Positions 1,127-60,502 of a DNA stretch of 64,000 bases are shown in pieces; the stretch's first letter is position 1; each line of letters starts with the position of its first letter. Location of the stretch: assembly GCF_028641065.1 (NCBI RefSeq), contig NC_073393.1:21576001-21640000 (forward strand), read 5' to 3'. The stretch comes from Leucoraja erinacea (taxonomy: Eukaryota). The translations under genes were made by a program, and so were the position numbers. The notes beneath the pieces were generated by a model. That model was not told where the DNA came from. It worked only from the letters and a program-made list of their open reading frames with translations, and ran no database searches.

Positions 1127-1386
1127 GAGATAGACACAAAAAGCTGGAGTAACTCAGCGGGTCAGGCAGCATCTCTGGAGAAAAGCAGTAGGTGACGCTT
1201 CGGGTAGAGACCCTTCTTCAGACGAGTCAGGGGGAAGCCATCCCCCAATCTCCAAGTCTGAAGAAGGGTCTCGACCCGAAACGTCACCTATTCCTTTTTT
1301 CCGGAGATGCTGCCTGACCCGCTGAGTTACTCCAGCTTGGTGTGTCTGTCTTCTGTTTAAACCAGCATCTGCAGTTCCTTCATACA
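1127..1386. mobile_element. Penelope-like (PLE) 3'-end fold-back insertion with hammerhead motifs on both arms
   Basis: Inverted arms (gacacaaaaagctggagtaactcagcggg.../...cccgctgagttactccagc) flanked by a diverged direct repeat cgtt(a/g)gagga(a/g)gtg at 1113-1126 and 1387-1400. Confidence 0.8.
1255..1290 (+). ncRNA. Minimal type I hammerhead ribozyme motif (PLE-associated)
   Basis: CTGAAGA (1258-1264), extra A, stem II GGGTC-TC-GACCC, GAAA (1278-1281), CG-TC; predicted cleavage after 1285; stem I is weak in this copy. Confidence 0.65.
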
Positions 1387-59600: not shown

Positions 59601-60502
59601 GACATCTGAAGGTAGAAATTCTTCTCTAGCCTCTGCTCAACACCCCCCCCCCCCCACCTGGTTCTTCTCTCACCTACCAAACTCAGTCTTGCCTCTCTCT
59701 TGTCTATACATATGGCCCATCTTCACTCGACACCCTCAGTCTTGATGCAGAATCTTGACCTGAAATAGGTGTAGATGTTTGATGGAACAAAATGAGGAAT
59801 GGAGTGTTGAGACAGAGGCTGAAGCAGGGTCCCAATCCAATCATTTTGGTCCATTCCTTCCACAGATGCTGCCTGACCTGCTGCGTTCCTCCGCCATTTT
59901 TTATTTTGCTCAAGATTCCAGCTTACCACTGCTGCATTGAGAGAAAACAATCATATTTCCCCAGCTTGTCCACTTCCTTCCTGCCCCTTTATCTCCCACC
60001 TCTCCAGTCCAGTTTTGGAGTGCATGCCCCATAGAAACAAACGCCTCAATTTATTTGTGGTCACAGAACACACTCCAGAACCAACTGGTCTGGTTAAATC
60101 GCCTTCCCTGATAATTCCACAGAGACCTGTGCGTGTGGATTATCTAGTGACTTTCAAAAGTAGGGAAACTATTTGATAGGGAAAATAATTAGGTGCTGGA
60201 TAGCTGTACGAGTTGGAAGTCTCTTTCAAACAACTGGCACAGCCGTGCGCCTTCCTGTTGTGCTACTTGATTCAGTTCCAGAAGTAAGTGGGAGAAGAAA
60301 TCTGAAAGGAATGTATTTGACAGGATTTGCACTCGGTGAGCTGATCCGCGCAGCATTACATTTGTGGTTTAAACTCTGCTTCTCTCTATTTCCAGGACAA
60401 AAGCCGATTTTAACAGACGTTCAGGCAGAGCTTGACAGGATGTCTCGAAAACCAGATCCTGTGGTCACAACAAACAGTTCTCCAACAGAAAACGAAGCCT
60501 AA
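7904..60502 (+). CDS. DYNC1LI2: Cytoplasmic dynein 1 light intermediate chain 2, complete spliced gene (13 coding exons, 483 aa)
   Basis: Manually spliced exons total 1452 nt with consistent phases and GT..AG boundaries. Protein [11 protein letters not shown]...[35 protein letters not shown]...TENEA* follows the remembered human DYNC1LI2 along its length. The MAPV start and TENEA end favour LIC2 over LIC1. Confidence 0.97.
8976..9292 (-). mobile_element. Penelope-like element 3' fragment with GIY-YIG C-terminus, nested in a CR1 fragment (~8740-9460)
   Basis: - strand [18 protein letters not shown] followed by a degenerate hammerhead and the common gatgctgcc...gctgagtt tail. Confidence 0.8.
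9470..9975 (+). mobile_element. CR1-like LINE 3' fragment
   Basis: [28 protein letters not shown] peptide typical of the CR1 ORF2 C-terminus. Confidence 0.8.
10129..10202 (+). CDS. DYNC1LI2: DYNC1LI2 exon 2
   Basis: tctttcag|G; (W)[24 protein letters not shown](G); donor G|gtaagg. Confidence 0.96.
10752..10868 (+). CDS. DYNC1LI2: DYNC1LI2 exon 3 (P-loop GEDGSGKT)
   Basis: ctccag|GT; (G)[38 protein letters not shown]; donor G|gtcagt. Confidence 0.96.
12790..12942. mobile_element. PIF/Harbinger-type MITE
   Basis: 18-bp perfect TIRs AGGGCCTGTCCCACTTGG; TTA target-site duplication on both sides (12787-12789, 12943-12945); CpG-rich interior. Confidence 0.85.
13606..14565 (+). mobile_element. 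5'-truncated L2-clade LINE (ORF2 RT C-terminus, 3' UTR, ATT tail)
   Basis: [57 protein letters not shown]; ends gctctataaataaa(att)n. Confidence 0.92.
15675..16180 (-). mobile_element. CR1-like LINE 3' fragment
   Basis: Reverse-complement similarity to the 9470-9975 fragment. Confidence 0.7.
18740..19669. mobile_element. Non-autonomous DNA transposon (hAT-like) containing a PLE hammerhead fragment (~18848-18920)
   Basis: TIRs CAGAGCTGCCAAGT / ACTTGGCAGCTCTG, flanked on both sides by CTATAG (or GCTATAGC). Confidence 0.75.
19670..19990 (+). mobile_element. Degenerate CR1 ORF1 (SGNH esterase-like) fragment, host of the adjacent DNA transposon
   Basis: Frameshifted [18 protein letters not shown] and G.[12 protein letters not shown] motifs. 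Confidence 0.55.
20832..21055 (+). mobile_element. CR1-like LINE 3' end
   Basis: Same family as 6606-7072; (tctattg)n tail. Confidence 0.8.
22805..23035 (+). CDS. DYNC1LI2: DYNC1LI2 exon 4
   Basis: ctccacag|AT; (D)[25 protein letters not shown]...[25 protein letters not shown]; donor T|gtgagt. Confidence 0.97.
23700..23995 (-). mobile_element. HE1/V-SINE-like SINE inserted in a PLE fragment (~23370-24060)
   Basis: Reverse complement of the tRNA-like head and SINE body with a (ctaaa)n tail; PLE GIY-YIG remnant resumes at ~24000. Confidence 0.8.
24318..24820 (-). mobile_element. Penelope-like element 3' fragment: GIY-YIG C-terminus, 3' UTR and hammerhead motif
   Basis: - strand [31 protein letters not shown], then ctgaagaagggtctcgtcccgaaacgttacc (24406-24376). 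Confidence 0.85.
26049..26521. repeat. 238-bp tandem duplication (2 copies)
   Basis: aaagagatggaatgttcagccg... starts at 26049 and 26287; copies appear identical except in the last ~20 nt. Confidence 0.95.
27830..29164 (-). mobile_element. Internally deleted Tc1 (IR/DR-type) transposon
   Basis: ~220-bp TIRs starting CAGTGCCCTCCATAATGTTTGGGACA with an inner direct repeat, and TA on the right flank. - strand transposase remnants [14 protein letters not shown] and [35 protein letters not shown]. Confidence 0.92.
32422..33619 (-). mobile_element. 5'-truncated CR1 LINE (RT domain to 3' tail) with inverted 5' piece
   Basis: [50 protein letters not shown]; (tctattg) tail at ~32422. Confidence 0.93.
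36555..36690 (+). mobile_element. Rex1/Babar-like RT fragment
   Basis: [20 protein letters not shown] motif. Confidence 0.75.
37170..37336 (+). CDS. DYNC1LI2: DYNC1LI2 exon 5
   Basis: cctccag|TG; (L)[21 protein letters not shown]...[22 protein letters not shown]; donor AAG|gtaggc. Confidence 0.96.
38778..38871 (+). CDS. DYNC1LI2: DYNC1LI2 exon 6
   Basis: cctccag|[34 protein letters not shown](Y); donor T|gtatcctt (U12 type). Confidence 0.95.
38872..39480 (+). other. U12-type (minor spliceosome) GT-AG intron 6
   Basis: 5' site GTATCCTT at 38872; branch sequence TTCCCTTAAC at 39460-39469, about 11 nt before the acceptor end at 39480; short polypyrimidine tract. Confidence 0.92.
39481..39616 (+). 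CDS. DYNC1LI2: DYNC1LI2 exon 7
   Basis: tttcag|AT; (Y)[44 protein letters not shown](I); donor AT|gtaagt. Confidence 0.96.
40246..40563. repeat. ~120-bp direct repeat (40246-40367 and 40442-40563)
   Basis: tgcatgtacctagacacaacgatttatttgtttggcattc...caacaattgtgtaaaa occurs twice, offset ~195 bp. Confidence 0.9.
41570..41681 (+). CDS. DYNC1LI2: DYNC1LI2 exon 8
   Basis: ttcag|T; (I)[37 protein letters not shown]; donor AAG|gtaatg. Confidence 0.95.
42365..42424 (+). CDS. DYNC1LI2: DYNC1LI2 exon 9
   Basis: tttttccag|[23 protein letters not shown]; donor CAG|gtaagt. Confidence 0.96.
44841..44882 (+). CDS. DYNC1LI2: DYNC1LI2 exon 10
   Basis: cttgcag|[17 protein letters not shown]; donor GCT|gtaagt. 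Confidence 0.94.
46078..46375 (-). mobile_element. Non-LTR retroelement 3' end with CCHC knuckle (Ingi/Vingi-like)
   Basis: [26 protein letters not shown] [frameshift] [21 protein letters not shown]...; (GAA)n tail. Confidence 0.65.
46840..46942 (+). CDS. DYNC1LI2: DYNC1LI2 exon 11
   Basis: ctcccag|[37 protein letters not shown](G); donor AAG|gtgagc; GSPRT motif shared with human; phase matches exon 12. Confidence 0.88.
47960..48260 (-). mobile_element. HE1/V-SINE-like SINE, near full length
   Basis: tRNA-like head with a B box (ggttcgatcc on the - strand), CpG-rich and therefore probably young. Confidence 0.85.
48282..48470 (+). mobile_element. HE1/V-SINE-like SINE, head-to-head with the previous copy
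   Basis: gggcagcacagtggctcagcggta...ggagtttgtacgttctccc...ggttaattggc. Confidence 0.8.
50160..50550 (+). mobile_element. CR1-like LINE 3' fragment
   Basis: [26 protein letters not shown]...[13 protein letters not shown]. Confidence 0.8.
54225..54366. mobile_element. PLE-derived loopless 100-bp palindrome with 14-nt TSD
   Basis: Arms 54231-54280 and 54281-54330 (2 mismatches); TATTTATTCAAAAG at 54211-54224 and 54367-54380. Confidence 0.85.
56179..56298 (+). CDS. DYNC1LI2: DYNC1LI2 exon 12 (adaptor-binding helix [12 protein letters not shown])
   Basis: ttgcag|GT; (G)[39 protein letters not shown](G); donor CAG|gtaagt. Confidence 0.96.
60396..60502 (+). CDS. DYNC1LI2: DYNC1LI2 exon 13 (coding part, stop TAA)
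   Basis: tttccag|GA; (G)[34 protein letters not shown]. Confidence 0.96.

Follow-up and report, generated by a model that had tools for sequence, protein, structure and literature searches.

Short hammerhead-bearing repeats at a dynein gene of Leucoraja erinacea and their probable origin as partial copies of a Penelope-like element

A 64,000-nucleotide stretch of Leucoraja erinacea DNA (NC_073393.1, positions 21,576,001 to 21,640,000; this whole stretch is the window below), which includes a dynein light intermediate chain gene, is crowded with short repeats that carry all or part of a minimal hammerhead ribozyme. The question it raises is what these repeats are and how they were made. We observe directly that they belong to a Penelope-like element (PLE), that they have two preferred 3' ends and a fixed 5' edge, that some are flanked by target duplications, that they pair head to head and that they decay neutrally. 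In our view they are probably insertions, 95-130 nt long and now decayed, of the pLTR (terminal repeat) of that element, which comprises the minimal hammerhead and a tail, and arose as by-products when the reverse transcriptase (RT) of the parent copied just the 5' end of its own uncut RNA. The class of element is known and the mechanistic interest is modest; the sharp, fixed ends are likely a trace of the way in which such elements make their copies.

The repeat and its parent element

Iterated profile searches found 60 and 62 copies of the repeat in the window and none in the reversed window, and a final anchored model gave 58 copies that make up 5,100 bp. This bears out the initial annotation, which had counted about 50 fragments. 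The five hammerhead cores named there were all located where it had placed them, and the endonuclease C-terminal peptide, [14 protein letters not shown], lies on the minus strand at 24699, with a variant at 9211 and a third, degenerate version at 24054 on the same strand. Signed positions below take as zero C3, the C with which CUGAAGA begins (window 1258), so that the predicted cut falls between +27 and +28. The copies of particular interest are as follows.

65..59924, both strands: all 58 copies, with 14 head-to-head pairs; 17 lie upstream of the gene and 41 inside it (23 antisense, 18 sense)
1126..1221, minus: short-tail copy, left arm of a head-to-head pair with 1255..1381
1255..1381, plus: short copy with a long tail, right arm of the inverted pair, beginning 3 nt before the core
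1258..1285, plus: sole intact minimal hammerhead core of the window, with CUGAAGA, an extra A, stem II, GAAA and ACGU; cut predicted after 1285; stem I of just 2 bp
8973..9292, minus: 5'-truncated longer copy with the endonuclease C-terminus, a pyrimidine-rich untranslated region (UTR), a decayed hammerhead and a short tail; left homology limit taken from the initial annotation
18851..18916, plus: intronic sense copy; core letters retained, stem II broken
24302..24820, minus: 5'-truncated longer copy with [17 protein letters not shown], a hammerhead with a stem II mismatch, and a tail
28975..29127, plus: intronic solo copy (28989-29110) flanked by 12-bp target-site duplications; stem II mismatch
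35527..35617, minus: intronic antisense copy; core letters retained, ACGU palindrome broken
54227..54360, unstranded: inverted pair of truncated copies, which gives an Rfam match to mir-1226 below threshold (32.6 bits; cut-off 95)

Walking upstream from the long copies revealed an open reading frame (ORF) with an RT (YIDD), a CNRRRCNTC linker and then a GIY-YIG domain. With the RT piece as query, 1077 proteins matched (among the matches listed, mostly RVT_1, many with GIY-YIG); the same piece had no match in PDB, and three partial pieces had none in Pfam at E 0.1. The decayed genomic copies match RVT_1 at E 2.5e-5 and GIY-YIG at E 0.002, both below the curated Pfam cut-offs. A close relative, protein P0016, to which the linker and endonuclease are 36% identical (E 2e-42), passes both cut-offs, and tblastn confirmed the order of RT followed by GIY-YIG. 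The linker satisfies the CX2-5CxxC motif that defines the Neptune and Nematis clades (PMC8557442), and our assignment follows this motif.

The same hammerhead and tail are present behind the ORF and about 160 nt before its ATG, which in locus L226 lies at +163 from the core. Hammerhead or tail directly precedes the ORF N-terminus in 9 of 19 loci (the best 19 non-self of 39). The repeat is thus the pLTR, which this element has at both ends, and we take the copies to be the pLTR and tail of a Neptune/Nematis-type PLE. The initial annotation had described a Penelope 3' end. The Penelope-like origin stands, with RT and GIY-YIG upstream, but the repeat is not just a 3' end.

Sampling of 96 ten-kb stretches, at round coordinates on large contigs, gave 446 copies, or 4.6 per 10 kb (bootstrap 4.0-5.4) and 4.1% of bases, which extrapolates to about 1.0 million copies in a genome of 2.19 Gb. 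The window holds 9.1 per 10 kb, about twice the mean; the four stretches that flank it hold 2, 3, 3 and 6 copies. The initial annotation had inferred a saturation of this particular gene, which is not borne out: amplification is genome-wide, and 13 of the 96 sampled stretches hold at least 9 copies. Statistics on ends, cores and pairs come from a pooled set of 504 copies; the median divergence of copies from the majority sequence is 16%.

Pieces of the parent were also met in two other settings. At L178-L197 (e.g., L179:1283-2926 and L186:1550-4756, along the element strand), an internal piece of the Penelope ORF, namely the RT region without a pLTR, sits together with a minisatellite inside a non-autonomous DNA transposon. 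The transposon has 14-bp terminal inverted repeats and 8-bp target duplications, with 0-2 mismatches in 14 of 20 loci. Here a retrotransposon fragment was captured and then multiplied by a cut-and-paste element, presumably of hAT type. Separately, four unplaced contigs (C1012, C1287, C1239 and C1155; L198-L201) share near-identical multi-kb segments (96-99.6%) that include a long Penelope copy and its flanks, and these are a segmental duplication or array rather than recent retrotransposition.

Copy ends and inverted pairs

The 3' ends of copies peak at two tail positions about 30 nt apart, near +95 and near +122 and beyond. This is the pattern of the PLE tail, which was traced to two internal RT start sites in PMC11167929. 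Of 214 copies whose cores align in register, 72 lie next to a further piece of the element, 61 retain upstream UTR and 81 are solo, and the solo copies start sharply 2-3 nt before the core. They match the UTR-attached copies at -1 and -2 (G at -2 in 62/81 solos vs 51/61 UTR-attached copies), partly at -3, and are at background at -4, where C is found in 23/81 solos vs 45/61 UTR-attached copies (p 9e-8). G is enriched at -3 in the solos (20/81 vs 5/61, p 0.014). The near-complete element L221 begins at -2, the same edge as in the solo copies.

Target duplications were detected around 17 of the 81 solos, against 0-2 in six shuffles, with 12 of these ending no more than 3 nt from the core. In one clean case (L037) a solo copy with a 10-11-bp duplication interrupts a long copy. 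There is no enrichment of starts at the predicted cut site, with 1, 2 and 5 copies beginning at +27, +28 and +29 against a background of 3.8 per position, and thus the usual template was not cut RNA.

RNA was considered in four standard raw-read libraries from a related organism, aligned to one long copy at 82% likeness and therefore silent on individual copies of the window. A search of sequencing runs with window positions 1-4000 listed no RNA run. Element sequence is present in 0.3-0.9% of read records. Read depth rises more than tenfold at the hammerhead, where the two strands are covered about equally, including in libraries whose reads over host exons are strand-specific. Neither read starts nor read ends pile up anywhere in the four libraries, the cut site and the solo edge included, although standard libraries can miss small circles. 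The pattern fits passive read-through of many genomic copies and is uninformative as to rare cleavage or a start site used in the germline.

These ends were probably produced during insertion. In this scenario, the GIY-YIG domain would cut the target and the RT would start at one of two internal tail sites, as measured for an anole element in vitro, where both DNA strands were cut and extended and hammerhead cleavage was unneeded (PMC11167929). On the 5' copy of the repeat, the RT would run off the end of the RNA after 95 or about 130 nt, and the fixed edge would be the RNA 5' end. Priming on both DNA ends could yield two complementary DNAs (cDNAs) joined head to head, with the hammerhead carried along uncut and decaying neutrally after insertion. 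The edge itself is perhaps a transcription start in the initiator-like TCAGT; we hold this about evenly balanced against a roadblock at the palindrome or the pyrimidine tract. More tentatively, and with somewhat less than even confidence, we suggest that the roughly one million repeats, which are the size of short interspersed elements (SINEs), are run-off cDNAs of the 5' end of autonomous Penelope RNA, akin to retroviral strong-stop DNA, and that inverted pairs come from priming both ends of one double-strand cut at different tail start sites.

A different source for the same ends would be an independent SINE-like family, in which short copies have their own masters, share the transcription start and are mobilised in trans. 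The fixed 5' edge, the target duplications and the copy number of about one million are all as expected for such a family, and pLTRs were reported to be enough for trans-mobilisation in rotifers (PMC3846280). However, solo and UTR-attached copies have the same mix of subfamilies (p 0.61, in crude classes with 48/142 copies unclassified), a near-complete element has the same edge, and the stranded reads have no sense-strand excess. We consider this origin improbable.

The arrangement of neighbouring copies is far from random. A third of the copies (170/504) form 85 head-to-head pairs, where about 4 pairs are expected, and the other neighbours are 21 direct and 12 tail-to-tail. An outer duplication surrounds 14 of 84 pairs, with 0-1 in controls. 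Pair arms share 73% of variable sites vs 56% for random pairs, and the two arms of a pair come from one subfamily. One long and one short tail are combined in 48 of 65 classifiable pairs (20 were dropped) vs 49% expected (p 9e-5), and in 38 of 52 when window pairs are left out. A one-sided tail and an inverted copy have been described for PLEs (PMC3846280, PMC8557442).

Several inverted junctions centre on a mini-palindrome, TCAG-T-CTGA, and palindromic inverted junctions were interpreted as self-priming in PMC3846280. Together with the resemblance of the upstream UTR to a 3' splice site, this is in line with a reading in which all the short copies result from priming at the 3' repeat followed by the usual 5' truncation, and the edge reflects an RT roadblock or fold-back at the palindrome, or proteins on the pyrimidine tract and CAG. 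Such a reading keeps the identity of the element and alters only the cause of the edge. Yet the solo edges lie at -3/-2, within the palindrome, and lack the -4/-5 letters needed for fold-back. In addition, the two arms of most pairs differ, the one with the short tail being complete and the one with the long tail truncated (20 vs 5 in the reverse arrangement; 13 vs 4 after a length cap, p 0.049). We regard this reading of the short copies as less likely than a run-off.

Several points weigh against a run-off from the RNA 5' end. The in vitro model comes from another clade, in which the RT starts inside the ORF. Among near-complete elements a single one starts at the edge; in four others the sequence runs on into upstream UTR, as it would in partial tandems. 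No transcription start was observed; the reads have no pile of starts at the edge and the strands are alike. Target duplications were undetectable around 64 of the 81 solos, and 5 of the 17 solos that have one carry 6-7 extra junction letters. The coarse subfamily classes likewise limit the comparison of solo and UTR-attached copies. Finally, an extra G derived from a cap is not demonstrated, with G at -4 in just 6 of 30 AGT starts.

Immediately in front of the core, the end of the UTR resembles a 3' splice site, as it does in D. virilis, and a splice-activated ribozyme was considered as a separate candidate. In L226 a splice-donor-like AAG|GT at +161 from the core overlaps the ORF ATG, and an acceptor-like pyrimidine tract and CAG stand before the hammerhead; no spliced product was found. 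There is no GT-AG joint among the 15 joints listed from the RNA reads (408 further joints occur), and the candidate upstream exon end is carried by no copy, the best agreeing in 8 of 12 letters. Because of these results, and because target duplications abut the edge, the splice-activated ribozyme is rejected for now.

The hammerhead and the host gene

The motif fits the published minimal type I hammerhead (PMC4209133), as the initial annotation had proposed, with an extra nucleotide before stem II and a palindromic ACGU. Our criteria were the core letters, the extra nucleotide after A9, the G10.1-C11.1 pair and a palindromic 15-16 region. A descriptor search on this basis returned one minimal hammerhead in the window, 17 in 560 kb and none in reversed controls, whereas an Rfam search returned no hammerhead family at E up to 1. 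Stem I reaches 2 bp or more in 16 of the 17 motifs and 4 bp or more in just 3, and most are thus short of a helix I of 4-5 bp.

Many copies had been said to retain the core. The five named ones do keep all its letters, but only 16 of the 58 copies span the core and exactly five keep the letters; four of these also have ACGU, and one (1258) also has a 4-bp stem II. In the pooled set, 145 copies span the core, 68 keep its letters, 44 also have ACGU and 31 also stem II. G12 is altered in 42 of the 145, to A at a CpG in 39. Given that G12 decays like any CpG site, the copies decay without selection. Covariation in stems I and II, the lack of which the initial annotation had named as a ground for giving up its reading, is absent among the 68 core-intact copies (score 0.219 vs 0.221 after shuffling, with the observed score reached in 258 of 500 shuffles), a weak test given that these are dead copies from a single family. 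A metagenome scan for distant relatives that could inform on covariation gave no locus.

Thermodynamic predictions put the pairing probability of stem I at 0.015 or less and the worth of an ACGU duplex at -1.7 kcal/mol. The intact copy at 1258 is part of an inverted pair (1126-1381) for which a hairpin of -197 kcal/mol (z -26) is predicted. In vitro, monomers of minimal hammerheads showed no activity and dimers only a weak one (PMC4209133), and protein assistance has been reported for the anole ribozyme. The hammerhead is broken in most copies and has left no sign of having cut.

These results bear on whether the repeat is a retrozyme, that is, a non-autonomous element with a tandem RNA that paired hammerheads cleave, after which it is circularised and a Penelope RT returns it to the genome. 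The motif is a type I hammerhead of PLE origin, and retrozymes are reported to derive from pLTRs, with some in one chondrichthyan genome (10.64898/2026.07.22.740005). Tandem 66-nt units do occur elsewhere (L032:3881-4435), with joints in reads, but they hold only the 3' half of the hammerhead, without CUGANGA. The window has no tandem array of the element, direct neighbours are far fewer than inverted ones (21 vs 85), no excess of copies starts at the cut site and no read ends pile there, and most intact copies have a stem I of 2 bp. A retrozyme is thus very unlikely. The "retrozyme/SINE-like derivative" of the initial annotation also finds no support in tandem whole-ribozyme units (none in the window), in starts at the cut site, in covariation or in the subfamily mix of solo and UTR-attached copies.

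The units at L032 consist of the hammerhead 3' half and the following stem-loop, and are a minisatellite born from the repeat, whose joints also occur in the RNA reads. An apparent tandem at window 10556-10621 was ruled out, as its joint stems from reads of other loci and the window has no such array.

The host gene encodes a dynein light intermediate chain closest to LIC2. It is on the plus strand and extends from a first mapped exon at 7883 to about 60500.

7883..7991, plus: first mapped exon, dynein light intermediate chain (DYNC1LI2-like), spliced to 10751-10866 in a contig of a related organism
10751..10866, plus: host exon with the DLIC P-loop
60392..60499, plus: final coding stretch, matching the C-terminus of light intermediate chain 2

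The copies had been placed in the introns of a housekeeping gene. This applies to 41 of the 58, inside the host gene, but the other 17, including that at 1258, lie upstream of the first mapped exon. The 41 copies, and the share of read records from the related organism that contain the element, could suggest that copies cut or regulate the dynein pre-mRNA. Against such an effect, no sense-oriented intronic copy of the window has an intact ribozyme, G12 is often lost and mostly by CpG-type change, the density is equalled in other stretches, and minimal hammerheads act poorly in vitro (PMC4209133). We give this effect on the host next to no credence; like the retrozyme, it is unlikely.

Copies are densest at 1-7800 (17 copies), upstream of the host gene and around a GC-rich stretch at 1000-2500. 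Directly before the first mapped exon, at 7347-7488, is a 31-bp tandem repeat (4.6 copies) with CCAAT-box-like words. Within an intron, at 26049-26522, a 238-bp unit occurs twice in tandem, 98% alike.

Significance and comparison with known systems

This adds little as a ribozyme finding, given that truncated Penelope ends with the minimal motif were already described in 2014 (PMC4209133) and that almost every copy in this genome is broken. More useful are the end statistics, which bear on how PLE insertion is completed and why the tail is one-sided. Specific predictions for the existing in vitro system follow from the fixed 5' edge, the two 3' ends and the non-random pairing. If the run-off explanation is true, this genome would be a very large in vivo record of internal initiation, which has so far been shown only in vitro. 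The family also matters for repeat annotation and for false microRNA calls, as it covers about 4% of sampled DNA and forms long predicted pre-mRNA hairpins. No description of the family or of a run-off model was found in the literature searched, and shark and skate terms had no match in two supplementary files of PMC4209133; a prior Repbase or Dfam entry is quite possible.

Like the PLE minimal hammerheads of PMC4209133, the motif has a CUGANGA and GAAA core, an extra nucleotide before stem II, a G-C closing pair and no helix III beyond a palindromic ACGU, and it occurs mainly as dispersed single motifs of truncated elements, with some opposite-strand pairs. It differs in number, with about 65,000-70,000 intact motifs by extrapolation vs the 4,000-9,000 given there for coelacanth and Xenopus, and in its stems (stem II of 4-5 bp vs 7-8; stem I in most cases of 2 bp, the length found in D. 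virilis, vs 4-5).

With Neptune/Nematis-type endonuclease-containing (EN+) PLEs (PMC8557442, PMC3846280) the element shares the RT, a CX4CXXC linker and GIY-YIG, 5' truncation, an inverted 5' copy, a 30-nt tail on one end only and target duplications of about 8-17 bp. Unlike in the elements described there, repeat-only insertions far exceed long copies and have a common fixed 5' edge. In the anole Poseidon element PAc (PMC11167929), too, the ORF region has a hammerhead at its front, the tail is set by two RT start sites, and the cut site is without RNA ends. PAc belongs to another clade, and in the element described here the hammerhead and both end positions precede the ATG (+163) rather than lying within the ORF.

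Non-LTR retrozymes (PMC7229834; 10.64898/2026.07.22.740005) are similarly short and non-coding, with a type I hammerhead and kinship to PLE termini. As described in those sources, they are tandem 150-450 bp units with mostly canonical ribozymes and circular RNAs, whereas the copies studied here are solo or inverted, and their hammerheads minimal and mostly broken.

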